From: an uncultured virus (IMG/VR IMGVR_UViG_3300026125_000001)
Lineage: Duplodnaviria; Heunggongvirae; Uroviricota; Caudoviricetes
Reading direction: 5' to 3' (one strand)
Virus record (IMG/VR): IMGVR_UViG_3300026125_000001
DNA length: 20,000 nucleotides
Shown piece after piece: positions 1 to 19,645 of this stretch (position 1 is the stretch's first letter; each line of letters starts with the position of its first letter). Below the pieces are notes generated by a model. The model searched no databases and was not told where the DNA came from. It saw only the letters and a program-made list of their open reading frames with translations. The position numbers and the translations under genes were made by a program.

Positions 1-1247
1 TTCTTGGTCATGTTAACACCAAGGGCATTTGCCTTTACTGCCGACTCTACGAATACGTTTTCATACTCAAGTTCATAGTAGAGTCCGTTACAAACAACAG
101 AGCCTTGGTCATTAGATTCGATTATGACATAAGCATCGTTGTAGGTTTTGGCGTACTTGTATATATGGTCAGGGAATAACAAAGGCGATATAAGGTTATC
201 TCTGAAAGTCGCCACCTGTTTAAAAGGTCTACTTGTTATATCAATAATATTGAATGTAGAATAGTCTTGCCCTCGCCCTTTGGCCACGTCGACAAACATC
301 ATATAATTGTGCTCGGGGTTTGGCTTTTCGTACACGCAAACTGAGCCTTGACGATAAACAGGATTATCAGCCTTTAGGGATAATAGTTTGTCGCCTGAGA
401 TTAGCGTGTTACCAGCGCCCAAGAAAGAGTTACCGAACTCCTGCATAAACTGCAGTTCTGACGTGTTCTCGATTGTCTGTTTCTTCCATTCTTCATCTCG
501 CCCAGGAACGTCCCACCAGTCTACGCGGAATGGTTTGTAAGAGTTAGTACCCTGAACTGCGCCCTCGTATATCTTGTGGAATGTGTTGCCCAAACCATTG
601 GCGGTAGAAGTAACAATTACCCTTGAAGACTTACCAGAAGATACAACAGGGTAGGTTGAGGTGTAGAACTCAACGTCATTCTCAACGAACGCAAACTCGT
701 CTAGGAACAGTAGGTTAATAGACAAACCACGAATAGAAGAACCTGACGTAGCAGCCGCTAATATCTTCGAGTTGTTGCTGAACTCAATAGAACCTTTGTT
801 GAGCGACTTACATCCTGGCTGTAGAAAGAAAGGTAAGTTCTCGAGCATCAACGTGATGCGCGAAAGCATCTCCCTAGCAGTTGCGCCTTTGTTCGCAAGG
901 ATAGCGATATTCTTTTCAGAATGGAATAATGCGTACCAAAGTAGATAAGCACAAGAACTGATAGACTTACCAGATTGTCGACAAGCCAAAACGATACTAA
1001 ATCTGTTGGAATTAAAATGGTCAAACATCCTCTCTTGATAAGGGTAAAGGTTAAAGGGGACCAAACCCTTATCTAGATGTATTACTTTTAGATATGTGCG
1101 CGCGAAGTAAGCGGGATCCTTCATACACTTAGCGTATTCAGTAATCTCTTCTTTGGTAAAGTTTGTTACAACGCCATCGCGCTTTACATGAGGGTTGCCG
1201 AGATAGTGGTGCTCTCTTGGTGGAACATTAGTCGGTATCTGGCTCAA
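1..1247 (-). CDS. terL: Terminase large subunit (T4 gp17-like), 3' end runs off the window
   Basis: Not in the ORF track; translated by hand. Probable TTG start at 1247 with AAGGA upstream, overlapping the end of terS. Reads MSQIPTNVPPREHHYLGNPHVKRDG...LYPYQ, Walker A (LACRQSGKS), Walker B (LLFLDEFAFV), motif C (VIVTSTANG) and nuclease motif (MFVDVAKGRGQDYSTF). Same frame at both ends. Confidence 0.97.
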   Translation of the reverse strand, partial: MSQIPTNVPPREHHYLGNPHVKRDGVVTNFTKEEITEYAKCMKDPAYFARTYLKVIHLDKGLVPFNLYPYQERMFDHFNSNRFSIVLACRQSGKSISSCAYLLWYALFHSEKNIAILANKGATAREMLSRITLMLENLPFFLQPGCKSLNKGSIEFSNNSKILAAATSGSSIRGLSINLLFLDEFAFVENDVEFYTSTYPVVSSGKSSRVIVTSTANGLGNTFHKIYEGAVQGTNSYKPFRVDWWDVPGRDEEWKKQTIENTSELQFMQEFGNSFLGAGNTLISGDKLLSLKADNPVYRQGSVCVYEKPNPEHNYMMFVDVAKGRGQDYSTFNIIDITSRPFKQVATFRDNLISPLLFPDHIYKYAKTYNDAYVIIESNDQGSVVCNGLYYELEYENVFVESAVKANALGVNMTK

Positions 1248-3451: not shown

Positions 3452-4222
3452 TTATCCTATCATGAAGTCAGCTGGCATTTCGTAGCGTAGCTGCATCTCT
3501 TCTTCGATCTTATCGATTTCTAAATTGGCATCATCGAACATTTGACGTCCATTAAACGTTACGCCACCTGGAAGCAACATGCCGTCAAATTTCATCATGT
3601 TCGTGCCCCACTGACGTTTGATCAATGCAGTCGCATAACGTTTAAGGAACATATCGTTGTAAACGTCAGTAAACGTTTCTGGGTCTACAACTTTACTTCC
3701 CTCAACAATAATCCAATCGCCTTCTTTGAGGTCAGTTTCCCAATCGAGGTATAGGTTAATCCTGTCCATATGGCGGTTGAATACGGTATTGGTTGTCCCA
3801 TTACCGAAAGTCATATTGAGCATTTCAATATAACTTTTTGTCATTGTGTATGATGTCAAATCCATCCAAATACCACCACCGTTGCGGAGTAGGTATGCGT
3901 CGGATAACATCATTTGGTATTGGACATTGAACATACCGCTACCCATACCAACGCCGCCTGCTGTAGTGTTGATAGGCATTACTCGTTTAACAACTTGAAG
4001 TTCTTCCGGAACGGTAATGTATTTGTTGGCGATATCCTCAGCCGTCATCTGATATTTGAAATACGTATTTACGATAGCATCAGAGTGATATTCTTGATAG
4101 AATTGTAGAGCTTCGTCTATACGATCTTCAATTTGGTCTTCGTCTACGTTTATTTCTACAACTGGTGCGCCCAGTTTTCGTAGACAAAAATCAATTAAGT
4201 CTTGTCTTGATGCTATAGCCAT
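3452..4222 (-). CDS. gp13: Neck protein / head-tail adaptor (T4 gp13-like)
   Basis: LIDFCLRKLGAPVVEINVDEDQIEDRIDEALQ, FLKRYATALIKRQWG and LPGGVTFNG. Confidence 0.96.
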   Translation of the reverse strand: MAIASRQDLIDFCLRKLGAPVVEINVDEDQIEDRIDEALQFYQEYHSDAIVNTYFKYQMTAEDIANKYITVPEELQVVKRVMPINTTAGGVGMGSGMFNVQYQMMLSDAYLLRNGGGIWMDLTSYTMTKSYIEMLNMTFGNGTTNTVFNRHMDRINLYLDWETDLKEGDWIIVEGSKVVDPETFTDVYNDMFLKRYATALIKRQWGTNMMKFDGMLLPGGVTFNGRQMFDDANLEIDKIEEEMQLRYEMPADFMIG

Positions 4223-4249: not shown

Positions 4250-4257
4250 TATTTATA
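4250..4257 (-). promoter_or_regulatory. T4-type late promoter TATAAATA upstream of gp13
   Basis: Exact consensus in the 36-nt intergenic gap, 27 nt before the gp13 ATG. Confidence 0.85.
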
Positions 4258-4258
4258 A

Positions 4259-4903
4259 TCAGAAATAAACCACGTTACACTCAAGTTCTGTATCGTACGC
4301 ATAATGGCACTGCAGAGTAATCCTGAACTGATCCGGTCCATCAACCTGAGTCCTACCAACCCTATGGACAACATGACCACTCCATTCACTTAGTTTGTAA
4401 TATTCGTAATGATATTGCTTTATTTCATCGCCATCATAATAGTCCAACCAAGTACCGTTTGTTGGTTTCTCGATTATTAGGTTTGCCGACCTTATAGTAC
4501 TCGCGTCAATAGTCGGTCTATATTCTATTATACTTGTATCGGTGTGGAAACCAGGAATATAATTTATTGGTAGATTTATTACATGAAATCCAGGACATGA
4601 TAGAACAGGGTCTATTATGGTCTTTATTCCGCTGCGCTCTTCTATACTACTAAGGATTCTGTCATATATCCACCCAAACTTTTCAATCATCCTATTCTTT
4701 AAATCATAATCCGTTTGTGCGTGATTTTCGTGGTGGTATAATGCCCAACCAAGATGACAGAATCCTTCTTTATGAATGCCGTAAGCGGCATGTAGTTCTG
4801 GGCTAATTTGTTTCCATTCATTACGAAACGATAATACATCTTCCCTTATTTTGAGGCGTTCTTCCTCAGTAATAAAGTCTTCAATCACATTTATCAAATT
4901 CAT
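4259..4903 (-). CDS. 2OG-Fe(II) oxygenase superfamily protein
   Basis: N-terminal VIEDFITEEE, facial triad H120-T-D122...H180 (VVHRV) and a distal Arg (R194, RITLQ). ATGA overlap with the upstream propeller gene. Confidence 0.8.
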   Translation of the reverse strand: MNLINVIEDFITEEERLKIREDVLSFRNEWKQISPELHAAYGIHKEGFCHLGWALYHHENHAQTDYDLKNRMIEKFGWIYDRILSSIEERSGIKTIIDPVLSCPGFHVINLPINYIPGFHTDTSIIEYRPTIDASTIRSANLIIEKPTNGTWLDYYDGDEIKQYHYEYYKLSEWSGHVVHRVGRTQVDGPDQFRITLQCHYAYDTELECNVVYF

Positions 4904-6444: not shown

Positions 6445-7943
6445 TATTTAGACCTACCTTTAAACAATCTGTTAAATTTACCGCGAAGCTTTTCTGAGTT
6501 TAAATGCTCAACGCTATATGCGCCTGCGGTTGTATTCGCGACTATGTTGTGCCTGTATACCAACAATCTATATCCGTTAGCGTTAAAATCATCAGAATCT
6601 GCCCCTCCTGTTCCGACGACAAGATATGTCGGAGTAGCCAAAACAATCCTTCCGAAATTATAAGGATAGCTGGGGTGAGTGAAAGTATATTTAAAAACTT
6701 GATCTTCGTTTGAGTTAATACCAGGCTTCAGCCATAAATGAACAGCACCAGTAGTATAATGAGACGAAGCTATTGCCACTAATGTATGATGATTATATAT
6801 GTTCACCTCGTATGTTTGCATGGGTAAATGAGTAGTGGACATACTTTTACCAAATGCACCTGTGGGATACCCAGGCGGAGCCGCGAAATTGTTGGTATAA
6901 ACCGTTCCTGTAGTTGCGTTTGAGTTAAGGTATGTCAACATAACGTTGTCATGAGTGTGATCCGAAATTAAATAATAGCCATCTTGAACTAAGGAATTTT
7001 CTCCAGTATAATGAAGCGCTTTTAAACTAAAATATGGTAAACTCTGGACGAAATTTTCTCCTCCACCACCGATGGTAAAGTCGTCGAATAGACTGACCTT
7101 GTTATAAGGTGTAATACCGCCAGCAGTAAATGTGACCCAGCTGGATGGTGAAAACGAATTCAAATAAGCCGCATAAGGAGATGTTAACTTCCTAGAAAGA
7201 TAAGCAATTTTAGTGGTGGAAATAGCTGTTAATGTACCAGCTACAATGAAATCACTGTTAGTAGCAGTGTGAGTGTATTCGCCAAGGTAGGAAGAACCCC
7301 AACCATCTTCTTTGCCGACCCTATTAATAAGGTAGATATAAATCTTCGATTGGCTGATGGAAGAGATGTAAACTATATTGCCTTGTACAATTAAATCTGA
7401 CCCAAAGTCTGTACTAGAGTCAGGACAAACAAAATGCTCTATTAATTCCCCTGTGGTTAAATCGTACATATCGACATAACCATTGGAATTGGTACTGATA
7501 TCAAAATCTTGGAGTTCGTCGTTAGAAGCTGTTTGTTCTCCATTATGAGCTAGAAAAAGAAAATCTCCGTGTAGATGGGCATTGATTATTCCGGAGTTTG
7601 ATGTAGAGTAGTCGCCACCGACATATGTTTTAACCAAAGCTCCAGATTCAATATCATAAATGTATACAGCACCTGTGAGATTACCGCCAGTGTTTTCGTT
7701 TAATGCGGGTACCATCAACCACCTATCATTAGCTTCAGCATTTGCTGCAAACTGATCGCTGGCTGTGTTCAGAGCGTTAATATTAGGGTTGGTTAGTTCA
7801 TACAGTAAAGTAGGTGCGGCAGTTGCAGTTGCTTGTACAGGTCCCTTTTTAAACCTATTAACGAAATCTGTTGAAGTTTCATTTGAAGGGAGAGCAGCAA
7901 TAGGCTGTCCTCCAACTTTAGTGTTTATTTGTAACTTTGCCAT
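6444..7943 (-). CDS. FG-GAP-like beta-propeller protein B' (499 aa), putative virion adhesin
   Basis: DQFAANAEANDRWLMVPA..TGAVYIYDIESG, GYVDMYDLTTG, FGSDL, FGKSM..TGAVHLW; TAATG-coupled to the next gene. Confidence 0.7.
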   Translation of the reverse strand: MAKLQINTKVGGQPIAALPSNETSTDFVNRFKKGPVQATATAAPTLLYELTNPNINALNTASDQFAANAEANDRWLMVPALNENTGGNLTGAVYIYDIESGALVKTYVGGDYSTSNSGIINAHLHGDFLFLAHNGEQTASNDELQDFDISTNSNGYVDMYDLTTGELIEHFVCPDSSTDFGSDLIVQGNIVYISSISQSKIYIYLINRVGKEDGWGSSYLGEYTHTATNSDFIVAGTLTAISTTKIAYLSRKLTSPYAAYLNSFSPSSWVTFTAGGITPYNKVSLFDDFTIGGGGENFVQSLPYFSLKALHYTGENSLVQDGYYLISDHTHDNVMLTYLNSNATTGTVYTNNFAAPPGYPTGAFGKSMSTTHLPMQTYEVNIYNHHTLVAIASSHYTTGAVHLWLKPGINSNEDQVFKYTFTHPSYPYNFGRIVLATPTYLVVGTGGADSDDFNANGYRLLVYRHNIVANTTAGAYSVEHLNSEKLRGKFNRLFKGRSK

Positions 7944-9326
7944 TTAACGATCCAAATACTTTCTTATGTATATATCTGCTGCTGAAGTTCTTATTGGAAT
8001 TGGAGTTATAGCGCCAGTAAGAGTTCCCGCCCCATTAACGTTTAATCGATCGCCAATGCAGAGAACATCGCCAACGAGAGCCGCGACACTGCCCCTGTAT
8101 AGACTAGAGGTAGCTGAAATTTGGGTACGCCCAGAGTAAGAACCAGTTGGGTCTTCCCTTCCCATTGCGTAAGAGCCCCACATCACCCCACCAATATTGT
8201 ATCGGGTAGTTTTACTAGATTGATAATCGTGGTTTGGACATCCTATAACAAACATGTTATCATTGCAATCCATGTCATATCCAAAATAATCCGGAGCGTT
8301 TGTTAACCCACCGAGGAATGGGCTAGGTATTGACAACCTCGAATCGGAAGATACGTCATATATGTCTACCTTTTCTTGGGTCATGTCAGGTCCGCCCATC
8401 GCTACCATTAAACGGGATCCTCGCATAACAATGTTAAACCCCCAACCATAGTTGTTTGTTTGTAGAGAACTAACATGCTTCCAAAATTGAATGTCCATCA
8501 ATTGAGTTTTATGGTTGTATTCCCATCTGTATATATTTACTCCACCATAATATCCGTCATTTCCTACGGCACTAGGGCTGTATGTAACAGCAATGTATCT
8601 TTCGTTCATAACAATTTTACGAGCGAAATTGAGGGGGTCTGACATTCGATTTAGACCATCTTCAATTTGATCGATCGGGGCGCTGACATTATCTCCAGTG
8701 TATGCGTTAAAAATCTGAAAATACCTTGTGTTGTTTACGCCATTATATTTGCAAATCGCTAGGAATGGACCCCAACCATCCATGTCGACTATTTTATCGT
8801 TTGCTTGTAATGGTAATGTGTGAGTCCATTCCTTACCAGTCTTTAAATCGACAAAATCAACAATACCATCCGAATCTGTGCCCACAACGCTGTAATATCC
8901 AGCAGCAGCATAATGCTCCGTGACAGCTTTCCTCAATGAGTCACCATATAGATGAGAAGAATATGGGTATAATGGGTTCCTAGTGAATAAATGTAATGGT
9001 TTGTTCGTCATTACATCGAAAACAACAGGACCATCTTTCGTTGTGGAATAAGCGTCACTTGGGTCTGTTGAACACATTAGGTAATTATGTGACTTTTTAC
9101 TTGGGGCGACACAAATGTCTTTGGTGTGTTCCGTCACCCCGAAGAAATCGCCTGTAAATGCTGTTTGAGGATATCTGTTGAAGATTAAGGAGTTCATAAC
9201 GTTGTCAAACAATTCTTCTGTGTCATTATGTATGGTCGGGTTCACGTTCAAGGTGTCGCCGACACCTTGATAATTGTATGGGTCAGTGCTCGTTAATCGT
9301 AAACTTGACTCTTTAAGGTCAGCCAT
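7944..9326 (-). CDS. FG-GAP-like beta-propeller protein A' (460 aa), putative virion adhesin
   Basis: GGVNIYRW, WGFNIVMRGSRLMVA, DYFGYDMDCNDNMFVIGCP and RGSVAALVGDVLCIGD; first gene after a late promoter. Confidence 0.7.
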   Translation of the reverse strand: MADLKESSLRLTSTDPYNYQGVGDTLNVNPTIHNDTEELFDNVMNSLIFNRYPQTAFTGDFFGVTEHTKDICVAPSKKSHNYLMCSTDPSDAYSTTKDGPVVFDVMTNKPLHLFTRNPLYPYSSHLYGDSLRKAVTEHYAAAGYYSVVGTDSDGIVDFVDLKTGKEWTHTLPLQANDKIVDMDGWGPFLAICKYNGVNNTRYFQIFNAYTGDNVSAPIDQIEDGLNRMSDPLNFARKIVMNERYIAVTYSPSAVGNDGYYGGVNIYRWEYNHKTQLMDIQFWKHVSSLQTNNYGWGFNIVMRGSRLMVAMGGPDMTQEKVDIYDVSSDSRLSIPSPFLGGLTNAPDYFGYDMDCNDNMFVIGCPNHDYQSSKTTRYNIGGVMWGSYAMGREDPTGSYSGRTQISATSSLYRGSVAALVGDVLCIGDRLNVNGAGTLTGAITPIPIRTSAADIYIRKYLDR

Positions 9327-9371
9327 TATAAATCTCTCTATTATTACTAGCGAATTGCCGCATATTACAAC

Positions 9372-9379
9372 TATTTATA
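9372..9379 (-). promoter_or_regulatory. T4-type late promoter TATAAATA upstream of the second propeller triplet
   Basis: Exact consensus in the 79-nt gap between lipB and propeller A'. Confidence 0.85.
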
Positions 9380-9405
9380 AGGTATCAGCTTTCAAAAATA
9401 TTCCC

Positions 9406-10050
9406 TCATTCAAAATCCCATGACGTTGTTTCTAGTTCTATATCAAAATTAAATGCCTTGGCGAAGTTCTCAATCAGGATAGGCGTTACTTGTTCAACCG
9501 TGATACCCTCAACATAGTCTGACATTCTAGCCGACTTCATACCAATATAGCCACAAGGGTGGATAACTTCAAATCCATCGTTTTCGTTTGTGACGTTGAG
9601 AGAAAACCCCCAAGAAGTCCACATATTATCAATCGAAAGACCAAGAGCGCTTATCTTCTTGTTGTCGTAGTACACGCCTGGAGCAGTTGGTTCCAAGAAA
9701 ACGTCATACATACCAAAATGGTTCAGGGTGTCAACAACGCTCTTTTCAATCAACCTCTCCATACTCATCGGGTCTATATTAGATTTGATCAAATCGCGCA
9801 TGTTCAGATTCATATAGCAAGATATCTGTCCTGGCGCAAAATGAGTTACGCATCCACGCCTGTTAGTTTTTATGATTGGCGTGCCGTCACGAGTAACTTC
9901 GCCAACTCCGTCAAGACCTTCTGTGAACGCCCTCTCGTGTTCAGTAACCCATATTTCATTTTGTTTTTTGGGGAGTTTCTTGAACTCCTCCAATTTATCA
10001 ATAGCATCTTCTATTTTAATAATACCGAGTTTTCTCACATTCAATTTCAT
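9406..10050 (-). CDS. lipB: LipB-like octanoyl(lipoyl)transferase, BPL/LplA/LipB family, divergent
   Basis: Collinear with proteobacterial LipB as recalled: VRKLG, EIWVTEH..FTEG, R.G.VT...PGQ, APGVY, KKISALGL (catalytic Lys132), G.SLNV and IHPCGYIGM (catalytic Cys166). Confidence 0.88.
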   Translation of the reverse strand: MKLNVRKLGIIKIEDAIDKLEEFKKLPKKQNEIWVTEHERAFTEGLDGVGEVTRDGTPIIKTNRRGCVTHFAPGQISCYMNLNMRDLIKSNIDPMSMERLIEKSVVDTLNHFGMYDVFLEPTAPGVYYDNKKISALGLSIDNMWTSWGFSLNVTNENDGFEVIHPCGYIGMKSARMSDYVEGITVEQVTPILIENFAKAFNFDIELETTSWDFE

Positions 10051-10053
10051 AAT

Positions 10054-11679
10054 TTACCTTCCAATCAAATTGTCAATAGATTCCTTAATATTGAAACCGC
10101 CTTTTATGTTGTATGATAATAAACCAGCCCACCTGTCAATATCACTGACAGTAGTCCCTATTCTGTTTTCAGGAGGGACTACGCCCCACATAACAAGCCT
10201 ATCCCCTTGAGCAGCCAAACCAGTCCCCAAATAAAAATTGTCTTCTTTTGCTGCCCTAGTTTCGTCTGCAATAAACCTCGTGTCGAATATCCTAGCAACC
10301 CCGCAATCTATACCATCATTAAATTGTCTCTGATGAGAGACTACGATAGGGGGCGGGTTTGGTATATTCGTGTCGTATATCTCACTTATTGAATACATAT
10401 GAAATCCATGCCCAGTAGCGTTCTTCCATGGATACGCCCCGTAATGAGCGGCTTCACTAATGTCAGCTTCGCCACGCTCGTCTGCTACGATCAGGTAATC
10501 GTCAGTAAATGCTGCCGATTGAAGCTTAAATTTGCCTGCCGTATTATAAGACAAATTCTTTATTAGTTTAAGGTCTAGTTTGAATGAAACAGTAGAATCG
10601 TTTGTGACTTGAAATACATGCACTGATCCATAGACAGTGCCCTTAGAAGAACCTTTAGTTGTATTATCAACTATGGCGATAAGATCTCCTTTAAATGCAA
10701 CGGATACACCGAAGTATCCGTTGGTCGATTGATAACTCGGGCGAGGTACCACAGTGCCCCATAAATCTATTAAAAAAGTTGATGACATAAAGTAATGTGC
10801 TGACGTTGGACAAATAAAGACACCGCCATTGTGACTCATAAAAAACCAATTGCTGGTGAATTTGACATTAACTCTATTAAAGACTGCGCCTGAACCGATA
10901 TAGGATGGGTTAAACATGTTATCAACAGTTGTAGGTGGGAAATCCCCACCAGCAACGTATGAATAACCCCAAGTTGTGTTTCTTTCATTTACACTCAACT
11001 GGACATATGACAACTTATCAGTGTTTGTAGTTTCACCCCATTTATTTTGAGTTAGCACTACCAACACATCATGCCTTTCCCCTGGCTCCAAGGTCGATAT
11101 ATTTCCGGAAGCATAGCGTAAACCGCCATCAGCAACGTCAAACGAATTGCCAAAATATAATACAGCGCTTCCGGAGGGAGCAATCGTGCCCAAAAGTTGA
11201 CCTGTGTACATATTATAGCAGTATATCCTGCCGGAACCGCCTTCTGCGCTACCGTCTCCGACATAGAGTCTACCGTTAATAGCTTTATTTGTTTGCAAAC
11301 CCCAGCGCGAACTAGCGCCAGTTGGGGCAGTTAAAACATGAAGTATATCACCGAAGTGGTAGTCTGAAATATAAATCTTGCCAGCGACGCCTACTTGATC
11401 ATTCTGGACCGTCCAACAACAAAGCATCCCATCAATTAAAACATTACAGGCATTGCCCCTTGTTGTCGCAGTCGAGGTAGGCTCGCGGTGAACTGCGATA
11501 GGCAAGGGTGAGTATCCCAAACGGCTTGTTTCATAATCGTTATACAACGGGCTTCTGTACAGATTGTGTAATGTTGGACCTGTACCATATTCGTTGAGCT
11601 TATCATCCCTTGTCACTACAGTACTGGTACCTGAGGCAGTTTCTATCTGTACATCAGTAGGATTATCAAAAAAAGCCAT
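10054..11679 (-). CDS. FG-GAP-like beta-propeller protein C (541 aa), putative virion adhesin
   Basis: GRLYVGDGSAEGGSGRIYCYNMYTG, YFGNSFDVA, YFGVSVAFKGDLIAIVD..GSVHVFQ and YLGTGLAAQGDRLVM. Confidence 0.7.
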   Translation of the reverse strand: MAFFDNPTDVQIETASGTSTVVTRDDKLNEYGTGPTLHNLYRSPLYNDYETSRLGYSPLPIAVHREPTSTATTRGNACNVLIDGMLCCWTVQNDQVGVAGKIYISDYHFGDILHVLTAPTGASSRWGLQTNKAINGRLYVGDGSAEGGSGRIYCYNMYTGQLLGTIAPSGSAVLYFGNSFDVADGGLRYASGNISTLEPGERHDVLVVLTQNKWGETTNTDKLSYVQLSVNERNTTWGYSYVAGGDFPPTTVDNMFNPSYIGSGAVFNRVNVKFTSNWFFMSHNGGVFICPTSAHYFMSSTFLIDLWGTVVPRPSYQSTNGYFGVSVAFKGDLIAIVDNTTKGSSKGTVYGSVHVFQVTNDSTVSFKLDLKLIKNLSYNTAGKFKLQSAAFTDDYLIVADERGEADISEAAHYGAYPWKNATGHGFHMYSISEIYDTNIPNPPPIVVSHQRQFNDGIDCGVARIFDTRFIADETRAAKEDNFYLGTGLAAQGDRLVMWGVVPPENRIGTTVSDIDRWAGLLSYNIKGGFNIKESIDNLIGR

Positions 11680-11697
11680 TATTTTTAACCTCTATAA

Positions 11698-13014
11698 TTA
11701 TATTCCTGGACCCCTGGACCCTGCTTGGCCAGGATGATTGAGACATCTCAATAAATCGCGTTTAGTTATCGTTCTTGTTGCTCTAACATAGACAACCCTT
11801 CCTGAAGTATCTAGACCATTAGTAGTCCTGTAACCGACCATAGCAACAAAATTTTCAGAAGCAACTACTCCGAATCTTCCAATGCCATCGTTTGTAGATG
11901 GTGTTTCAGCTTTGAACGAAGCGGAATATGTCATCCCCTCTGCAGCCCCAGTAGAGTTCATAGTTAAGTTATATTTCTCGACGACATATCCTGTGGTAGC
12001 GTCGGTGCTCCTACAGACATAATATTTAACACCATCATCCCCACCGCTTGTTAAAGCCCCAATATCAGCATAAGGCGTAGATATAGCTGCGTTGTATATT
12101 GTTGATAAAGGAGAAGTCGGGCGCTGTATATTTCCTAAAGTTACTAAACCTGCCGATATGCTGTTATACACATGGTAAACTAAAGCTAGTGAGCTGGCGT
12201 CTGAAGGGTTTGGACGAATACCAAATGCGTTCCCCATTGCGCCGAGCCTGTTTTGGTTGGTTGGACCCATAAAGGCTATCCCACTCTCGTTAGTTACGTC
12301 CACCTCAAAAACAGAGGCAGGGCTCTGTGTTGAACTCATGTTCGTCACACCCCAGTAATAGTTAGGATTACTTGTGAACCATGTTATAAAAGCAGTGCCG
12401 TCAGAAAAGAACTTATGCGCAGAGGTGCCCCAAGCAGCGCCAGCATTCGCAGGAGCCAGCGCTCTGGTATAATGGACGTTTTGTGTGGCAGGAAGTTTGT
12501 CCGAATAAAACCTAAGTTCATTTTCAGTTTCATATGGCATTATAATAACATTGCCCCAAGAGGTTTGAGATCTTTGGTTTGCGCACCAAACTCCATCGTC
12601 AGCAAAGGCGGTATCACCATAAAAGTCCATCTGCCAAATCAACACTCCAGTCTCTATATCGTAAGTATGAACCATACGCGAGTCTGAGTCTGCAGTAAAC
12701 GTTATGGTCTTCTCATGCAAAGCAAAGGGACCATTGTACATTTGAAATTCATTTACTTTGTGCCCGTTGTGAGTTCTGAATACATGGATAACGCCATTGG
12801 CGAGTACTGCTAAATACGCATCATTCATTTGAATCTCATTAGGAGAGATATCGTCATCCAATATATATAACAAATCATCTTCATTAGCCCAAACTTCGTC
12901 CAGGTGTGTATCAAGAGCCACGTCAAAATCTGTTAGAATTTTGAGGGTCTTTCGAACATTAGCCCCTCCCTCTAGATTGCTCGAACCTGTTACTGATGGT
13001 ACCAAATTCGCCAC
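11698..13014 (-). CDS. Beta-propeller-like protein B (438 aa), putative virion adhesin
   Basis: GTG start overlapping the upstream TAG. Beta-rich blades NDAYLAVLANGVIHVF, VHTYDIETGVLIW and GRFGVVASENFVAMVG. Confidence 0.6.
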   Translation of the reverse strand: MANLVPSVTGSSNLEGGANVRKTLKILTDFDVALDTHLDEVWANEDDLLYILDDDISPNEIQMNDAYLAVLANGVIHVFRTHNGHKVNEFQMYNGPFALHEKTITFTADSDSRMVHTYDIETGVLIWQMDFYGDTAFADDGVWCANQRSQTSWGNVIIMPYETENELRFYSDKLPATQNVHYTRALAPANAGAAWGTSAHKFFSDGTAFITWFTSNPNYYWGVTNMSSTQSPASVFEVDVTNESGIAFMGPTNQNRLGAMGNAFGIRPNPSDASSLALVYHVYNSISAGLVTLGNIQRPTSPLSTIYNAAISTPYADIGALTSGGDDGVKYYVCRSTDATTGYVVEKYNLTMNSTGAAEGMTYSASFKAETPSTNDGIGRFGVVASENFVAMVGYRTTNGLDTSGRVVYVRATRTITKRDLLRCLNHPGQAGSRGPGI

Positions 13015-14333
13015 TATACTTCCTCCAACCTTTCCATAAATATTGAATATGCGTCATCGTTCATAAATCGATTTATCGAATAAAAATTCGCAGCCGACCA
13101 AAACAAATCGGATCCGTACGAATCCAGCTTATTATATCCATAAGCAGTCCCAGTAGTTAATCTTCTATAATCTTGGTAGGTGTTTGAATTCCAATTGAAA
13201 CCGTATATAGCGCCAGGGATCCTAGTTGCTTTAGATGTTACATAATCGGCAGCAGGAGCCCCTATCCAAACGTCCTTACCATTGGTGGCCACAGAACCGC
13301 CAAAAGCATCGACAGTGTTGCTACCGTCTACGTTTGGATTTGCGTAAGTGGTTGAGGTTCCATTAGATAGGTCAATGAATACAGCTTTATCTGCCTGAAA
13401 ATATCCGACAATGAGCTTTTCATTACAAATATCCATACAAGAACCAAAATGGGTGGTTGGAGTAACACCCGCAATCGCTTGATCAGTATAAGAAGCAATC
13501 GTTGCGTTCAATTGCCTAACTCGTTTTTTTGTTTTTCCGGTTGAAGCAGTCATAACATAATCGTAATGCGCAATGTTTACAGCCGCAATTGTATCTGAGA
13601 CCCTTGAAGCAACAACATACTGACTGCTCATAACAAGATTTCCTGCGTAATGAGCAGTCGTTGCCGACATCTCCAACGCCCCGAGCGAATCGCCTGTGAA
13701 CAGGTTGACCATCTCAACCATCATTTTATTGCTATAGCTTGGATGCTGCGGGCAGAGGATAGCAAGATTAGCGCCATGAATAGCTATGGCTTGACAATCC
13801 CCGTTGTAGGGGTTTGGAATAGTAATTGTCCACTCATCGCCACTGAGTATATCAGTAACCAGAACTGAACCGCTAGAAGAACCTAACACGCCCACCTTTA
13901 AAACGGCAACATATCGATCATAAGCATCGAACACATATTGTATAGGGGCATAGTTGCTGGCTGTTGATGTGCCAGGAGCATATGATATATGTGCTCTGAC
14001 GTCTTTCACGAACACTATTTGTCCAGTGCTCTTGGAAAACACGACTATTTTTTCAGTTGCAGTCTGTATACCGCCTAAACAAAAGATGTAGTCCTTTGTT
14101 ACCCTGAACTCGCGATTGGCGTAACTAGTAATGGCTGATGACGCATAATAACAAGTCTGTGGCATGGTATTAGTGGTCAACAAGGCAGCTTTTTTGTTAA
14201 ATTTACCATCAGGAACCAATGTTGTGCCATTATTTACCATGATCGCATTGCGAGGGGTAATGGGTTCATTCGGTCCGTTTAGACCTGGTCGCCTTGATTG
14301 AAAATAGCTCCCGATTCCGAGTTTTCCGCTCAT
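13014..14333 (-). CDS. FG-GAP-like beta-propeller protein A (439 aa), putative virion adhesin
   Basis: HFGSCMDICNEKLIVG and DAFGGSVATNGKDVWIGAPAAD..PGAIYGF, a near-canonical FG-GAP blade. Confidence 0.72.
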   Translation of the reverse strand: MSGKLGIGSYFQSRRPGLNGPNEPITPRNAIMVNNGTTLVPDGKFNKKAALLTTNTMPQTCYYASSAITSYANREFRVTKDYIFCLGGIQTATEKIVVFSKSTGQIVFVKDVRAHISYAPGTSTASNYAPIQYVFDAYDRYVAVLKVGVLGSSSGSVLVTDILSGDEWTITIPNPYNGDCQAIAIHGANLAILCPQHPSYSNKMMVEMVNLFTGDSLGALEMSATTAHYAGNLVMSSQYVVASRVSDTIAAVNIAHYDYVMTASTGKTKKRVRQLNATIASYTDQAIAGVTPTTHFGSCMDICNEKLIVGYFQADKAVFIDLSNGTSTTYANPNVDGSNTVDAFGGSVATNGKDVWIGAPAADYVTSKATRIPGAIYGFNWNSNTYQDYRRLTTGTAYGYNKLDSYGSDLFWSAANFYSINRFMNDDAYSIFMERLEEV

Positions 14334-14551
14334 TACCGCATAACCTTCATGTCATTTGTGTATTTTTCTATGTCTGCTTTATATTGGTCAAGGTCAAAAT
14401 CGTCACCTTCTTCCCAACGGTTGTAACGATCCCAAGCGAACATATCTGGACCAACGAAGTAATCTTCTGGTTTTAGTGGACCATTGTAATTAATAGTAAA
14501 CTTTTTAATGACTTTATTTTTCTTAATTGCCAGTATACTTTTTTCAAACAT
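14333..14551 (-). CDS. Small hypothetical protein (72 aa), possible fibre adaptor or chaperone
   Basis: SD-like GGTGAG upstream, 8 nt after the fibre stop, TAATG-coupled to propeller A. Function inferred from position only. Confidence 0.65.
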   Translation of the reverse strand: MFEKSILAIKKNKVIKKFTINYNGPLKPEDYFVGPDMFAWDRYNRWEEGDDFDLDQYKADIEKYTNDMKVMR

Positions 14552-14559
14552 ATTCTCAC

Positions 14560-16467
14560 CTATGATTTTTCAATAATATTTTTCAATTCATCTATCTGTT
14601 GTTGCTGTTCTTTAATCGCTTCTATCAATAAACCGACCATATTTGAGTAAGCAACAGCATAGAAACCTTCGTCATTTTCTGTCACCGCTTCAGGCAATAC
14701 TTCAAGCACTTCTTGAGCAATGACACCAGTAGAACGGACGCCACCCATGTTATCCTTGACATAAGTATAACCACCAATTTTCTTAACCTTATCTAGAGCA
14801 TTTGTTATTGGCTCTATTTCGGATTTCTGACGGATATCTGAGTTTTCGATTAAAGTGGCATTGTTAATTGTAACGTTTGTGTTGTTGACCTCAAGACGCT
14901 CAGATCCGCCAGTAACAACACGCCACTGATCAGCTGCATGGAATTGCAAGTATGTGTTAGTGTCTCCAGTAGAAATGATCTGGTCGTCTACATACAGATC
15001 AGTAACGCCATTAATATCACCTGATACGGTTAATCCACCACGTATATTACTGGCTGCGCCTGCATCAAAAGCGCCTGAGTTCTGAACAGTGAACTGACCC
15101 GCAGCACCACCAGCGGTGCCTGTATTACCAGAAGTAGTATTATTAATAAAGCGAGCTATATCACCAGTTGACCTTTGGTTAATATATAACACAGCATTAG
15201 TACTGCTCCGGTTTACAAATAGATAATCATCACCTTGTACTGTTGTGTTGTTCAGTACAGCATAGTCACCTGCTGCTTGAGCACCTATTTCAGCTAGAGT
15301 CCAAGATACGTCCTCAGTACCGTTAACAGATTTACCAGTAGATCCTATAGTGAGGGTTCTGCTAGTAGTCCACGAAGCAGCGGAAGCAGCGGCACCTGAA
15401 CAAGATGAGGAAACGTTCACCTTCTTGAATTGAATATCGGGCTGTTTTAGGTAGATAGAACCTGTAAAACCAGTCCAGTTGAGTACAACTACACTCATAA
15501 AACCATCAGCGGGTGCAGTGTATGACCGACTGAAGTTAGTCCATGATGTGCCTATGGTACTGTTTTCATACCAACCTGAGTCGCCAGAACTGCTTTCTTG
15601 GACAAATGAATAAGTTGCGCTACCTGATACGTGAGTTTTACCATTCGGAAGGCTTGAGCCATTCCAGAAATATATCCTAAAATACACACCACTGGTTGCT
15701 GCTGCTGAACCTTTCGCTTGTATGTTGATATCTACCTGATCACCAGACTTCATACGTATTGCTTTGAAAATAGCACCACCTGAATTATCAGCTGCGTTCT
15801 TTAATTCTACAGCATCTTGGGTGGCATTCCAGACCACATTAGTTTCGGTAGCATCGCTGTATCCTGGAACCCATCCTAATGCTCGAGCGATAGATTCGTT
15901 TGATTCTGCTTCAGTATAGTATCGCCCGTCATGAGTATGGCTATCATTACCAACAGCAGTGGTAATGCTGATTGAACCATTAGACGCTACCGTAGTTGAA
16001 CCTGTTACATCACCCGTTAATGCTACAGAATCCCCAGACTGGGTGGCTGCAGTATTCAACGCAGCAATATCAACACCATCAACAGTACCAGTTACAGCAA
16101 TGTTACCAGCCACTTGTACAGTACCAGTTACACCAATGTTACCAGCCACTTGTAGCTTATCTGTTCCGTTATCAATAGCTGTGCCAACAAGAACATTACC
16201 ACTAAATTCAGCAAGTCTAATAATACCAGTATCATCTACTTCTATCGAAGGAATACCCGACACATCATTAACAGAGAAGATCGTTCCGGATAAATCGTCG
16301 GATATTGAGAACAACTGACCAGCAGAACCGCTGAACGAAAGTGTTCCATCGTCAAGGACAGTCATCGTAACGGGGTTATTGTCTCCACCAGTGAATACAA
16401 TATTCGGATCGGCTGTAGTTGATCCTCTATTCGGTGTAATTAAAATATTCTTATCTGCGTCTGCCAT
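14560..16467 (-). CDS. Tail fibre protein with C-terminal peptidase S74 intramolecular chaperone
   Basis: Gly/Thr/Ser-rich shaft and fibre motifs NDSHTHDGRYYTE and VSWTLAEIGA. C-terminal SDIRQK...GVIAQEVLEVLPEAV...VAYSNMVGLLIEAIKEQ plus coiled coil is the S74 signature. Confidence 0.9.
   Translation of the reverse strand: MADADKNILITPNRGSTTADPNIVFTGGDNNPVTMTVLDDGTLSFSGSAGQLFSISDDLSGTIFSVNDVSGIPSIEVDDTGIIRLAEFSGNVLVGTAIDNGTDKLQVAGNIGVTGTVQVAGNIAVTGTVDGVDIAALNTAATQSGDSVALTGDVTGSTTVASNGSISITTAVGNDSHTHDGRYYTEAESNESIARALGWVPGYSDATETNVVWNATQDAVELKNAADNSGGAIFKAIRMKSGDQVDINIQAKGSAAATSGVYFRIYFWNGSSLPNGKTHVSGSATYSFVQESSSGDSGWYENSTIGTSWTNFSRSYTAPADGFMSVVVLNWTGFTGSIYLKQPDIQFKKVNVSSSCSGAAASAASWTTSRTLTIGSTGKSVNGTEDVSWTLAEIGAQAAGDYAVLNNTTVQGDDYLFVNRSSTNAVLYINQRSTGDIARFINNTTSGNTGTAGGAAGQFTVQNSGAFDAGAASNIRGGLTVSGDINGVTDLYVDDQIISTGDTNTYLQFHAADQWRVVTGGSERLEVNNTNVTINNATLIENSDIRQKSEIEPITNALDKVKKIGGYTYVKDNMGGVRSTGVIAQEVLEVLPEAVTENDEGFYAVAYSNMVGLLIEAIKEQQQQIDELKNIIEKS
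16082..16153. repeat. 36-bp in-frame tandem duplication in the tail fibre gene
   Basis: acagtaccagttaca(g/c)caatgttaccagccacttgt twice, 35/36 identical; encodes QVAGNI(G/A)VTGTV twice. Confidence 0.95.
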
Positions 16468-16495: not shown

Positions 16496-16669
16496 CTATT
16501 TATATCTTCGCTTGTGAGCAATATACAGCTTCTTAACTTCGATATCAGATAGAGCTTCTTTATAAATGTGGTATGGATCAATCTCTCCGTTTGAAGAAGT
16601 CTTGGATTCGGGGTCTAAAATAAAGGTAGACTTCCTATTCGGAAGTTTTGATCCAGAATGTGCTGCCAT
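16496..16669 (-). CDS. 57-aa miniature LamG-paralog (N- and C-terminal modules only)
   Basis: Below the ORF-track cutoff. MAAHSGSKLPNRKSTFILDPESKTSSNGEIDPYHIYKEALSDIEVKKLYIAHKRRYK. TAATG overlap with the upstream gene; both ends resemble those of the neighbouring LamG-like proteins. Confidence 0.7.
   Translation of the reverse strand: MAAHSGSKLPNRKSTFILDPESKTSSNGEIDPYHIYKEALSDIEVKKLYIAHKRRYK
16497..16504 (-). promoter_or_regulatory. T4-type late promoter TATAAATA upstream of the tail fibre gene
   Basis: Exact consensus 29 nt before the fibre ATG; coincides with the last codons (TAT AAA TAG) of the 57-aa ORF. Confidence 0.85.
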
Positions 16670-17850
16670 TAGATACCAAACCTCGCTCTAAGCGCGTTAA
16701 AGTTTTGTTTTATTTCGTTGTTTGTTAACGCTCTGTCATAAACCGTTACATTACCAAGGTCAACGTAAGTCATACCAGAATCCCAAGGACCTCTACTATT
16801 AATAACAAAGTTGTTAGTTGTATCTATAGGCATTGTTACATAATCAACTTTTGTAGAATAATCTGTATGTTTTAGCCATTGTTTTTGTTCGCCGTCAATC
16901 CAAACTCTCACATTACGAGAAGAGTCCATAGTTATAACAGCGTTATGCCAATTACCGTCAGAACTCCATTTGTTATTAGCAGCCTCTACTGACATATCGT
17001 ATGCGCTACCATAACCCCAGTAACCTAAATCTTGGCAGTTTCCTACCCCGTACATAAACCCAAACATAGAGCCTTGCGTAGTCCCCGAGTTAAGAAACCC
17101 TATTTCCCAGTTGTCGGTACCAGATAAAGGTCTATCTGAACGTATCCAAATGGATAAGGTTTTTTCTCTTGGTATATTAAACGAGGGTATAGATATATTA
17201 GCGCTTTGCGACTTAAAGTTAAACGTGTTATCCGTATTATAATTTAAAGAGTTTACTGTTAATGTACGTTTACCAGCCCAATCAATAATAGCTGTTGTAT
17301 TAGTTCTATCATTGCTAGTTTTAGATTCCACATAAGGAGAAGCATATGCGCTCTGTTCAAGTTGCAGATCCCATATCTCAACTACCGTATCAGTAGATTG
17401 AACAAAATCCATAAACCTATACGTACTGTCATATGTTGCACGAGTACCAGTGGCCGTTTGATAGAATACACCATTGCCAAGATCGGTAGTTGTTCGGGTC
17501 ACTGATGTATCACACCAGTCACCAGCATAAAAAGTTGGCCCACCTGATATTATTGTGTACTTAAAAGATAGAGTATATGTTTGACCATTAATAAGGTTAG
17601 CAGGGTTAAAATACATTCTCCAAGAACTACCAGTTAACGATGTGGTAGTTAGAATATACCTTTCGTTAGACACAATAGTAGTTCTTGATATAGGTATATT
17701 TAACTGACCAACTGACCAGTCTATATTGCCGCTCGTATTTTTAGCTAGATTTGTAGTAGGTTTACCTTTCCACGACTTCTTATCATTGCCCATATCATAA
17801 GCAAATACTAATCCATCATTAATGATTTCTGGTCCAGATGATGCAGACAT
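16669..17850 (-). CDS. LamG / concanavalin A-like lectin protein with inserted CBM-like domain (393 aa)
   Basis: Start reassigned to the ATG at 17850 (MSASSGPEIINDGLVFAYDMG, TAATG overlap). LamG motifs TLSIWIR, DGNWHNAVIT, VRVWIDG and VYDRALTNNEIKQNF; insert ends in WDLQLEQSAYASPY. Confidence 0.85.
   Translation of the reverse strand: MSASSGPEIINDGLVFAYDMGNDKKSWKGKPTTNLAKNTSGNIDWSVGQLNIPISRTTIVSNERYILTTTSLTGSSWRMYFNPANLINGQTYTLSFKYTIISGGPTFYAGDWCDTSVTRTTTDLGNGVFYQTATGTRATYDSTYRFMDFVQSTDTVVEIWDLQLEQSAYASPYVESKTSNDRTNTTAIIDWAGKRTLTVNSLNYNTDNTFNFKSQSANISIPSFNIPREKTLSIWIRSDRPLSGTDNWEIGFLNSGTTQGSMFGFMYGVGNCQDLGYWGYGSAYDMSVEAANNKWSSDGNWHNAVITMDSSRNVRVWIDGEQKQWLKHTDYSTKVDYVTMPIDTTNNFVINSRGPWDSGMTYVDLGNVTVYDRALTNNEIKQNFNALRARFGI
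17789..17817. repeat. 29-bp perfect direct repeat, copy 1
   Basis: cccatatcataagcaaatactaatccatc, identical to 18928-18956; encodes DGLVFAYDMG. Confidence 0.95.
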
Positions 17851-18989
17851 TATATTCCGAACCTCCCTCTTAGAGCGTTGAAGTTTTGCTTTACTTCTGT
17901 TGCTGATAATGCTCTGCGGTATATCCTGGTCATGGCATTTACTCCATTCCAGTATCTTCCTCCACCTCCCCATCTACCAAGTCGTAAAAATTCAGTACCA
18001 TCATAATTAATAGCTGGAGCTGCACCCGAGGCAACTTGTTCTCCATTAATATAAATGACTTTAGTATTAGTTGATGGGTTATGAGTACAAACTACATGCT
18101 GCCACACATTTGCTGTTAAATTAAAATTCACAGTAGATCCGGTTGTGTAAAAATAATACTGATTGAGCGTAGTACTGTTTTGTTGAATAACCCAACCTCT
18201 ACTGTTAGTATGATTATTATCTATGATATCAGCATATTGAACTTGTGAAGATCCTGGCTTAACCATTAATTCGATGGATAGTGTGGTTTCTGTAAATCCT
18301 GAACCAACATCTAAGTAATTCGATGACCCATTAAAACTAAAGGTGTTATCACTATTATAAGTTAAAGAGCTAGATGTAATAGTATTATCACCTGCCCAAT
18401 CTACTATTTCTTTCTGATTAGGATTGTATATCTTTGAAAAACTAGAGGCTGATGAATTACGTTCTAGTTGTAAACCATCGTACCATATTTCTACTCCATT
18501 ACCTAAAGAATCTGGTCCATCAAATCTTATTGTTATGGAAGCAGTTGTTGCGTCTGTCATCGTTCTAGTTGTTGTTATTCGTTGCCATTCAGAATTAATA
18601 CTATAAGATGGATTAGATATTGATGTGTATGCACCGTTTACATTAGACTCGAATATCCATATCGCTGATGTTGTAGGTACACTTGAACGTACCCAACAAC
18701 TTGCTGTCCATGTTTCGCCTTGCACCGCTTCTGTAATAATCCATTGCGATCCACTATATGTATTAGTATAAGGATCAGTATCGCTAGTTACTGTCATTTT
18801 TAGTGGCGTATTACCCACAGGACTTTGTATAGTATCCCTTTCAAGAGTACATCTAGCACCTACATTAAACCACGAATATAAATCTGTAGAGTATTGAAAA
18901 GCATTTTTACCGTAGGATCTTGTGCTTCCCATATCATAAGCAAATACTAATCCATCTTTTACTATTTTTGCTCCGTGGCCTAGACTCAT
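17850..18989 (-). CDS. LamG / concanavalin A-like lectin protein with inserted CBM-like domain (379 aa)
   Basis: FSFNGSSNYLD, WQHVVCTH, IYINGEQV and IYRRALSATEVKQNFNALRGRFGI; insert GETWTASCWVRS..WQRIT..DGLQLE. Confidence 0.85.
   Translation of the reverse strand: MSLGHGAKIVKDGLVFAYDMGSTRSYGKNAFQYSTDLYSWFNVGARCTLERDTIQSPVGNTPLKMTVTSDTDPYTNTYSGSQWIITEAVQGETWTASCWVRSSVPTTSAIWIFESNVNGAYTSISNPSYSINSEWQRITTTRTMTDATTASITIRFDGPDSLGNGVEIWYDGLQLERNSSASSFSKIYNPNQKEIVDWAGDNTITSSSLTYNSDNTFSFNGSSNYLDVGSGFTETTLSIELMVKPGSSQVQYADIIDNNHTNSRGWVIQQNSTTLNQYYFYTTGSTVNFNLTANVWQHVVCTHNPSTNTKVIYINGEQVASGAAPAINYDGTEFLRLGRWGGGGRYWNGVNAMTRIYRRALSATEVKQNFNALRGRFGI
18928..18956. repeat. 29-bp perfect direct repeat, copy 2
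   Basis: Identical to 17789-17817. Confidence 0.95.
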
Positions 18990-19645
18990 AAATTAAACCT
19001 TTCTTTTAAAACTTTAAAGTTATACTCAATTTCAGCACCAGTTAGTGGTTTATTATAGTTTACCCAATGAAATAAAGTATGGTTTCCTGGATTTTGTATT
19101 GTTGTTTTAGTAGCATGTCTACTGTTAAACTTCCAATAAGAAGAGTTGCTAACAAGAGTTCCATTAGCAGGATACGTGTAAGTGTTAGCCAAAACACCGT
19201 TTTTATATGTTTTTATATAAGTTCCATCATAAGTTATGGCAATATATGCAGTTTCCCCGACCGAAATGGTTACTCCTGTGTTATACCAAAACCAAGCTTG
19301 GTTGCTAGTATAAATAGCCCACTGAAGAGCACCACCATCATCTCTTATTTCCCAAGAATTTTCTTTATTAATAACAATGTCTTCGCCAGAACCTGCAGAA
19401 TCTCTTCGATAAACTACGCTGACTGTATTACGATCTGCGTTATGTGTAGAATTATCAACTGCTATAAATTGTGACTCATTGCAAACTAAACCATTATTGA
19501 CAATTGTGGGTGTACCATAGTGGTAATTAGTATCGCTTGACAACGCTTCAACCGTGTTACTACCGCTAACACACTTTGCGTTAGCGATATCTACAATAAA
19601 CATTGCCCCTTTGGTTATAATAGAACTACCGTAACCAATTGCCAT
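18986..19645 (-). CDS. LamG / concanavalin A-like lectin protein (219 aa, no insert)
   Basis: MAIGYGSSIITKGAMFIVD, YIAITYDGTYIKTYKNG and YNKPLTGAEIEYNFKVLKERFNL. Confidence 0.82.
   Translation of the reverse strand: MAIGYGSSIITKGAMFIVDIANAKCVSGSNTVEALSSDTNYHYGTPTIVNNGLVCNESQFIAVDNSTHNADRNTVSVVYRRDSAGSGEDIVINKENSWEIRDDGGALQWAIYTSNQAWFWYNTGVTISVGETAYIAITYDGTYIKTYKNGVLANTYTYPANGTLVSNSSYWKFNSRHATKTTIQNPGNHTLFHWVNYNKPLTGAEIEYNFKVLKERFNL

Follow-up and report, generated by a model that had tools for sequence, protein, structure and literature searches.

A LipB-like gene of a T4-like phage contig keeps the catalytic Cys/Lys dyad and carries rare changes at near-invariant sites: a candidate acyltransferase of altered specificity

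LipB counts as a housekeeping enzyme, one that has a single job and a very rigid active site. LipM and LipL, octanoyl- and amidotransferases, belong to the same fold superfamily, LipL being the amidotransferase of Bacillus that acts on amide-linked acyl groups. Here we analyse a LipB-like gene, P0001, which occupies positions 9406..10050 on the minus strand of a 20,000-nucleotide stretch (hereafter the window) of the uncultured Caudoviricetes record IMGVR_UViG_3300026125_000001. In Escherichia coli LipB, according to one published study, the catalytic dyad is formed by Cys169 and Lys135, the R71-G72-G73 loop is required for full activity (the G72A/G73A variant retains 39% and R71A retains 21%), and the acyl chain is lined by V41, T48, R71, T76, H78 and H150, as judged by overlay on LplA (PMC9307952). 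A second study describes six salt bridges to the acyl carrier protein (ACP) AcpP, at K54, R93, R99, R142, R144 and R145, in a docking model guided by nuclear magnetic resonance (PMC8495967).

P0001 is LipB by descent and fold. Its 214-aa product is read from the ATG at 10050 to the TGA at 9408-9406 and scores 109.1 bits against the NCBIfam lipB model TIGR00214, whose cut-off is 83.55. All five of its NCBIfam matches are LipB models, the other four (NF010922, NF010923, NF010925 and NF010921) each staying below their own cut-offs. The Pfam family PF21948 (LplA-B_cat) is matched at E 1.4e-11 with 45.2 bits against a cut-off of 27, and the sequences of the Protein Data Bank entries 1w66 and 2qht/2qhs are matched at E 2.7e-10 and about 5e-7, respectively. 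Homology to LipB is far above chance. The AlphaFold2 model, built from a 148-row alignment, has a mean predicted local distance difference test score of 94.9 and a predicted template modelling (TM) score of 0.91, and contains no disordered regions. With this model as the query, Foldseek places the Mycobacterium tuberculosis LipB 1w66 at the top (TM 0.84, E 2.3e-18), followed by the Thermus thermophilus enzyme 2qhs (TM 0.82). Thus, P0001 shares with the described LipB proteins (E. coli b0630, 1W66, 2QHS/2QHT) a single-domain fold, at TM 0.82-0.84, and a similar length. LplA-type ligase structures rank below LipB, at TM of 0.75 or less (0.66-0.75 by query length, Foldseek ranks 3-9, 12 and 15-18). 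The LplA catalytic domain has the superfamily fold in common with P0001, and lysine acylation is the outcome in both families; however, P0001 is a single domain without the accessory C-terminal domain, no ATP-dependent chemistry is expected of it, and its sequence models are all LipB.

For comparison of individual sites we aligned P0001 and E. coli K-12 LipB (b0630, taken from NC_000913.3) with the 149 best non-self matches from an exhaustive search of 1.84 billion representatives, and give counts per 150 rows. When the six rows sharing P0001-type changes are set aside (several of them are phage-type, e.g. P0006 and P0103), 147 comparison rows remain; the term is our own label. The catalytic residues are intact, with the numbering given in the initial annotation: K132, which sits in KKISALG, aligns with E. 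coli K135 (conserved in 150 of 150 rows), and C166, in HPCG, aligns with C169 (149 of 150), the M. tuberculosis equivalents being K142 and C176. Besides the dyad, P0001 shares with LipB the residues R64, G66, T69, the PGQ motif, G148, N152 and F160.

Judged from this alignment, P0001 misses three canonical LipB features, namely the loop glycine, the two pocket histidines and the basic docking patch. The loop R71-G72-G73 of E. coli reads R64-R65-G66 in P0001, although the middle glycine is present in 146 of the 147 comparison rows (148/150 overall) and arginine in none of them. Two histidines at acyl-contact positions (by the overlay on LplA) are replaced by aromatic residues: F71 stands at E. 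coli His78, which is histidine in all 147 comparison rows (149/150 overall), and W147 stands at His150, histidine in 144 of 147 (144/150 overall). The acyl-lining positions V41, T48, R71, T76, H78 and H150 correspond to T36, T43, R64, T69, F71 and W147. F71 belongs to the stretch H70-F71-A72-P-G-Q75, where H70 takes the place of a tyrosine carried by 123 of 150 rows and A72 that of a glycine carried by 134 (11 rows have alanine). At the six modelled AcpP-docking positions P0001 has V49, D86, M95, S139, D141 and N142, none of which is basic, whereas each of the 147 comparison rows retains between one and six basic residues; no row has zero and seven have one. S139 stands where 138 of 150 rows carry Arg or Lys. 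N81 (E. coli position 88) replaces a hydrophobic residue and is asparagine in none of the comparison rows. P0001 has an isoelectric point of 4.96, whereas 131 rows have a median of 7.81.

The three motif changes named in the initial annotation, DRGGQVTYHGPGQ of E. coli to NRRGCVTHFAPGQ of P0001, SFHGLALNV to TSWGFSLNV and LGLRIRR to LGLSIDN, are all confirmed against NC_000913.3. Given the published roles of the aligned positions, they fall on the loop, the acyl pocket and the modelled donor-docking face. Such substitutions proved to be rare in other LipB sequences, with zero to three exceptions in 147 rows at the loop glycine and the two histidines.

We suggest, with a probability of roughly 0.4, that P0001 is still active as a Cys/Lys acyltransferase but has shifted in its specificity for the donor or the acceptor. 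The enzyme would form an acyl-thioester on Cys166 and hand the acyl group over to a lysine amine. Since the RGG loop has become RRG, the pocket histidines have become Phe and Trp, and the basic docking patch is gone, the standard transfer from octanoyl-ACP to the lipoyl domain would no longer be performed. The acyl group may instead be taken without ACP docking, either from acyl-coenzyme A (acyl-CoA) or through the phosphopantetheine arm alone, and the acyl pocket is predicted, from the residues lining it, to be altered in size. P0001 would then act late in infection on a non-canonical acceptor, for which the co-transcribed appendage proteins are the first candidates. That the gene encodes specifically a LipB-derived lysine fatty-acyl transferase working on late phage proteins, such as the propeller or fibre proteins of the appendages, or on some other target that is not a lipoyl domain, we consider unlikely.

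The changes are partly shared by a small group of relatives. The closest non-self match of P0001 among the 1.84 billion representatives is only 36% identical, and a word-indexed search of 5.8 billion clusters recovered nothing except the query, on six contigs, the longest of 77,938 bases. One weak match, P0006, lies on the IMG/VR contigs L003 (9 kb) and L004 (from a 25-kb contig). L004 carries two tandem LipB-like genes, P0006 and P0156, directly before gp13; the copies are 55% identical to each other and each is 31-32% identical to P0001, while gp13, gp14 and the small terminase (terS) are 70%, 52% and 84% identical between L004 and the window. A profile of these three proteins found a fourth member, P0157, at 296 bits, with ordinary LipBs following from 147 bits downwards (32 matches in total). 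The alignment and tree proposed in the initial annotation, made here with other LipBs, place P0001 in a four-member, phage-type clade with P0006, P0156 and P0157 (IQ-TREE on 56 rows, ultrafast bootstrap 96, Shimodaira–Hasegawa approximate likelihood ratio test (SH-aLRT) 83), with P0103 next out (98/80). A quick 60-row tree gives the same grouping with SH-aLRT 80.

All four clade members keep 19 of the 25 positions at which at least 90% of the 147 rows agree, although P0006, P0156 and P0157 are only 29-35% identical to P0001. The kept positions include R64, G66, P73-G74-Q75, K132, G148, N152 and C166-G167. Two exceptions run through the whole clade: Gly at E. coli position 72 is Arg in all four members, and His at position 150 is Trp/Phe/Phe/Phe. 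Furthermore, Gly79 is Ala/Ala/Ala/Ser, Thr76 is Ser in three of four, and Pro168 is Leu/Thr/Leu in three members and is retained in P0001. The His78 to Phe change occurs within the clade in P0001 alone, and also in P0103. R65 and N81 are fixed throughout the clade and occur in none of the 147 rows. Hence, P0006, P0156 and P0157 resemble P0001 in the RRG loop, N81 and the aromatic residue at 147, and differ from it by the histidine at position 78 and two or three basic docking residues, which they keep. The signature that we propose for the clade (Arg at E. coli position 72, Asn at 88, an aromatic residue at 150 and the dyad) is present in all four proteins, and the synteny with gp13 in the window and in L004.

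Two of these proteins, P0157 and P0103, are metagenomic. P0103 retains RGG and has Phe and Tyr at the two histidine positions. For P0103 and P0157 alike the source is a Logan contig of 17,913 bases; the equal length and source would point to a shared contig, and so to a third phage in which LipB-like genes occur as two copies. A single-protein scan of viral contigs gave no further clade member, and profile scans of viral contigs and metagenome contigs recovered the L004 contig alone. Longer, fused forms were also sought; the LipB-LipA fusion that this alone brought up counts as weak evidence. As far as has been seen, P0001 belongs to a small clade that appears limited to a narrow group of T4-like phage contigs.

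The rates of change are in agreement with an enzyme under constraint. For the tandem paralogues P0006 and P0156 the ratio of nonsynonymous to synonymous rates (dN/dS) is 0.38 by the Nei–Gojobori (NG86) and 0.45 by the Li–Wu–Luo (LWL85) method, with dS of 0.76-0.95; a ratio below 1 in this pair, together with the kept dyad and framework, speaks against decay and bears on the purifying selection asked about in the initial annotation. Between the window and L004, dN reaches 0.69-0.72 for the LipB-like genes, compared with 0.12 for terS, 0.24 for gp13, 0.45 for gp14 and 0.51 for gp15, and dS is saturated for all of these gene pairs except terS. Three freshwater metagenome runs, which may be the source of this DNA, contain contigs which are identical over 7900-11700 and thus offer no variation for a ratio of nonsynonymous to synonymous polymorphism (pN/pS). 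A 23.5-kb record (G001), 99.97% identical to the window where they overlap, differs from it by one base in 3642. No RNA run is listed among the sequencing runs with the region. These data suggest that the catalytic core is under constraint, that a small number of switches have become fixed and that the remainder changes fast, a picture different from decay.

The usual partners of LipB are absent from the DNA searched. Linkage to lipA or to lipoylated proteins is common for LipB, though not obligatory, and it is not seen for P0001. None of the 18 window open reading frames (ORFs) contains a LipA/radical-SAM, ACP (PP-binding), Biotin_lipoyl or GCV_H domain by Pfam, in accord with the initial annotation, which had found no lipA, ACP or lipoyl-domain gene in the window. 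Six-frame searches of G001 and of a related 25-kb record (G002), which each amount to about 13-14% of a phage genome and in which the positive controls worked, also gave no radical-SAM, Biotin_lipoyl, GCV_H or PP-binding domain.

Phage-encoded LipB in general seems to be rare. The window has no megablast match and no close cultured relative: its gp15 reaches 52.9% identity at best among the matches listed (over 57% of the query, in three joined pieces), the top-ranked ones being about 48% identical and found in cyanomyoviruses, and its gp13 reaches 42%, in other T4-like phages. No PHROG family matches P0001. Among 50,697 phage records there are six weak matches of at most 30% identity, the top two of which have gltA, rpoD and ybeD-lipB around them and are bacterial chromosome under a phage name. 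In one record, CAKLQH020000002.1 (L007, 'Acinetobacter phage MD-2021a'), lipB stands among gltA, rpoD, ybeD, cysG and trmL, and this part of the record looks like a host bacterial chromosome filed as phage. Two motif patterns of canonical LipB, searched in 2.9 million viral contigs, returned one fragment, at a contig end. A full-text literature search gave no paper on phage-encoded LipB within the collection covered.

All large genes of the window are on the minus strand. In the order of transcription they are three Laminin_G_3 genes, a 635-aa fibre gene with an S74 domain, a 72-aa ORF, three genes of 438-541 aa, P0001, three genes of 460-514 aa, a 214-aa ORF without an assigned role, the gp13, gp14 and gp15 types (neck and sheath-stabiliser proteins) and the small and large terminases. 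P0001 follows the 541-aa gene (10054..11679, minus strand) at a distance of exactly 3 nt, as the initial annotation had it, since the TAA of the latter is at 10056-10054. A Shine-Dalgarno-like hexamer, GGAAGG (10057..10062, minus strand), lies 6 nt 5′ of the P0001 ATG and thereby still within the upstream gene, close to its stop. The GC content is even in this region, at 0.40-0.41. A sigma-70-like site at 10076-10049 was rejected as a promoter: it overlaps the P0001 ATG, and the scan total is at the chance level (63 sites found, 58.9 expected).

The genes preceding P0001 belong to a putative late unit, all on the minus strand. It would begin with the tail-fibre gene (14560..16467), which ends in a C-terminal Peptidase_S74 intramolecular chaperone, and would continue with the 72-aa ORF (14333..14551), for which no function is assigned, and two genes of about 438 aa (13014..14333 and 11698..13014). 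The former of the two has a match to PF14312 (FG-GAP_2) at E 0.002, below the cut-off, and resembles both the gene at 7944-9326 (E 3.5e-9) and an FG-GAP gene of L004 (E 5.8e-6). The 541-aa gene may encode an FG-GAP-type, beta-propeller-like protein; this is a lead given by Atlas TM values of 0.55-0.62 to FG-GAP_2 clusters and a best Atlas feature match of 0.89 to a viral FG-GAP cluster, and the gene has no match in Pfam or in cultured phages. A complex prediction for P0001 and the 541-aa protein scored 0.00 in two runs without controls, which speaks neither for nor against binding. The three genes after P0001 (7944-9326, 6444-7943 and 4900-6444, minus strand) show weak similarities and no Pfam match, and they are probably divergent propeller-type paralogues. 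Altogether, six very divergent genes of 438-541 aa flank P0001 between 4900 and 14333, with detectable similarity in some pairs only; L004 has three such genes.

The limits of the unit appear to be marked by the motif TATAAATA, which we take to be the T4 late-promoter consensus. One minus-strand copy (16497..16504) lies 30 nt before the fibre ATG and is the nearest such motif upstream of P0001. Another (9372..9379) falls in the 79-nt gap between the P0001 stop and the next ATG (9326), at a distance of 46 nt from the latter, and since it follows the stop, P0001 would be the last gene of its unit. The window contains five copies against 2.3 expected, a number reached in 16 of 200 shuffles and thus not significant alone; all four minus-strand copies (1663-1670, 4250-4257, 9372-9379, 16497-16504) are 28-91 nt before gene starts, namely those of terS, gp13, the gene after P0001 and the fibre gene. 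The motif is similarly placed in L004, where plus-strand copies at 796, 11318, 18291 and 19859 stand about 30-57 nt before gene starts. The gene order in L004 is S74 fibre, a 964-aa protein, three proteins of 418-455 aa (the first with an FG-GAP_2 Pfam match at E 2.5e-10), P0006, P0156, gp13, gp14, gp15, terS, terL, gp18, gp19 and gp20. Here the copy at 11318-11325 lies between P0156 and gp13, and the nearest upstream copy on that strand, at 5843, before the FG-GAP genes. Hence, in both phages a late unit made up of propeller-type genes seems to end with the LipB-like gene or genes. The LipB-like genes of the two phages have the slot preceding gp13 in common, the difference being that L004 has a tandem pair and the window has one copy followed by three extra propeller-type genes. 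The initial annotation had placed P0001 behind a structural-type gene in a late unit; the propeller-like nature of that gene is a lead, and the late unit as such is deduced from the late-promoter-like motifs.

Some other features of the neighbourhood are worth recording. In L004 a GT8-like glycosyltransferase gene (120-800, plus strand; PF01501, E 1.3e-6) is found immediately 5′ of the S74 fibre gene. The 214-aa ORF at 4259-4903 (minus strand) occupies in the window the slot of the second copy of L004, but it does not resemble LipB, with an hhalign probability of 0.4%. It has no significant Pfam match, and by eye it contains an H-x-D ... H ... R pattern, presumably reminiscent of 2-oxoglutarate (2OG)-Fe(II) oxygenases. 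It is followed by the gp13-type neck protein gene (3452..4222, minus strand), our synteny anchor, 70% identical to its L004 counterpart. At the other end, three tandem Laminin_G_3 (concanavalin-like) genes fill 16669-19645 (minus strand), where the ORFs 16669-17973 and 17850-18989 overlap by 124 nt. Given this overlap, the annotated start of the downstream ORF is probably too early; the sequence behind one of its internal Met residues is like the N-terminus of its neighbour.

In more distant relatives the region before gp13 is variable. We collected 80 loci around gp13 relatives, 78 of them from other contigs with gp13 49-57% identical. Hidden Markov model searches with either profile found a LipB-like ORF in none of these 78. 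The sequence available before gp13 is at least 1.5 kb in 56 of them and at least 3 kb in 32. The LipB-like gene therefore seems confined to a narrow sub-lineage. In 27 of the 32 loci (L013-L090), the 5 kb upstream of gp13 were scanned with Pfam for 93 of their 115 ORFs, the five loci left out having duplicate ORF layouts. The cargo comprises S74 fibres, tail-assembly chaperones, C1q, RCC1 propeller and leucine-rich repeat proteins; sulfotransferases, glycosyltransferases of the GT2, GT25 and GT92 families, a methyltransferase, a carbamoyltransferase and sugar-nucleotide enzymes; a 2OG oxygenase adjoining a PLOD-type glycosyltransferase; a subtilase, ClpP and a Coq4-like protein; and heme oxygenase with a bilin reductase, which are plainly metabolic. 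These cargo enzymes are similar to P0001 in being enzymes beside fibre genes in the same slot; they differ from it in that no LipB-like ORF occurs in the 78 loci and that a part of them is plainly metabolic. The argument that the initial annotation drew from the position in a late structural unit is weakened by this, since the slot is a cargo hotspot which includes metabolic genes in the 27 loci, and modifying enzymes beside fibres and true metabolic genes are both common there.

Several observations weigh against the assignment of a changed specificity to P0001, and most of them favour instead an ordinary auxiliary metabolic gene. P0001 would in that case be a divergent conventional LipB that octanoylates lipoyl domains of the host or the phage, with host LipA adding the sulfur, so that the 2-oxoacid dehydrogenases or the glycine cleavage system are kept working during infection. 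The gene passes the cut-off of TIGR00214, an equivalog model, and finds LipB models only in NCBIfam; it keeps the dyad together with 19 of the 25 near-invariant positions. In the E. coli study, LipB-ACP binding is weak, octanoyl-CoA is accepted as a donor without ACP, and the RGG-loop mutants are 21-39% active (PMC9307952); with the glycine double mutant at 39%, each of the changes may fit ordinary octanoyl transfer. The ACP interface itself is a docking model and not a crystal structure (PMC8495967). The other three clade members retain His at position 78 and two or three of the six docking basics, and the changes common to the whole clade are limited to R65, N81 and the aromatic residue at 147. 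The records searched for partner genes make up about 13-14% of each phage genome, and a lipoyl protein, ACP or LipA may lie elsewhere. Because the branches of the clade are long, its grouping in the tree may to some extent be an attraction artefact. Finally, the slot before gp13, with heme oxygenase, bilin reductase and the Coq4-like protein among its cargo in relatives, says little and is a weak guide between the readings. Nevertheless, we consider a conventional LipB, a serious rival, somewhat less likely, because P0001 has lost both pocket histidines and the loop glycine, which 144-147 of 147 rows share, and because its Pfam score of 45 bits falls short of the 102-136 reached by 11 of the 14 proteins scanned (the others have 69 (P0006), 81 and at least 81). 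The faster divergence of P0001 than of the core genes, the tandem duplication in L004, the lack of lipA, lipoyl, GcvH or ACP genes in the DNA searched, the near absence of canonical LipB from viral contigs and the position in a putative late unit, deduced from motifs, point in the same direction. The neofunctionalised acyltransferase of the initial annotation thus gains from the rare changes at near-invariant sites and from a phage-type clade with a kept core, while a conventional role in lipoylation keeps its share of probability.

The same replacements, three at invariant or near-invariant residues, could alternatively mean that the protein is catalytically dead, the LipB fold being kept for binding or assembly, or that the gene is drifting to loss. 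The low family score and high dN would fit this, as would the absence of the gene from the 78 more distant relatives, even from the 56 with at least 1.5 kb before gp13. Nonetheless, the dyad and framework persist at about 30% identity, both across the clade and in P0103, the frame is intact behind a Shine-Dalgarno-like site, the dN/dS of the paralogues is below 1, and the structural model is confident throughout, so that we regard a dead or decaying enzyme as improbable. A phage-type, fast-diverging clade with a conserved catalytic core fits changed specificity better than decay. A LipL-like, amide-linked acyl transfer, by which P0001 would move the octanoyl or lipoyl groups of host lipoyl proteins, or strip them off, and redirect host central metabolism late in infection, is compatible with the dyad chemistry, and with a donor other than acyl-ACP the loss of the docking patch would be no surprise. 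Yet NCBIfam gives LipB models only, with no match to LipL or LipM, and the pocket changes are left unexplained, which makes this mechanism very unlikely. The reading as an active acyltransferase with changed donor or acceptor specificity is therefore the one that we prefer. In comparison with the described LipB enzymes, P0001 differs by RRG for RGG, Phe and Trp for the acyl-contact histidines, Asn81, no basic residue at six docking positions and an acidic isoelectric point, and it is encoded by a phage, in a putative late unit of appendage genes, where the DNA searched holds none of lipA, lipoyl or ACP genes as a neighbour.

Last, we consider what such a gene may mean. A protein that keeps the dyad and yet has switched otherwise fixed residues is a natural experiment on donor and acyl-chain specificity in the LipB/LplA fold. 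If P0001 is a normal LipB, it would represent a new class of auxiliary genes and would show the two histidines to be dispensable. If the acceptor is instead a phage protein, this would be a new kind of virion modification. Acylation of the propellers or fibres, if true, would be the first case in which an enzyme lipidates lysines on proteins of the phage particle, co-diversifying with the host-recognition module.

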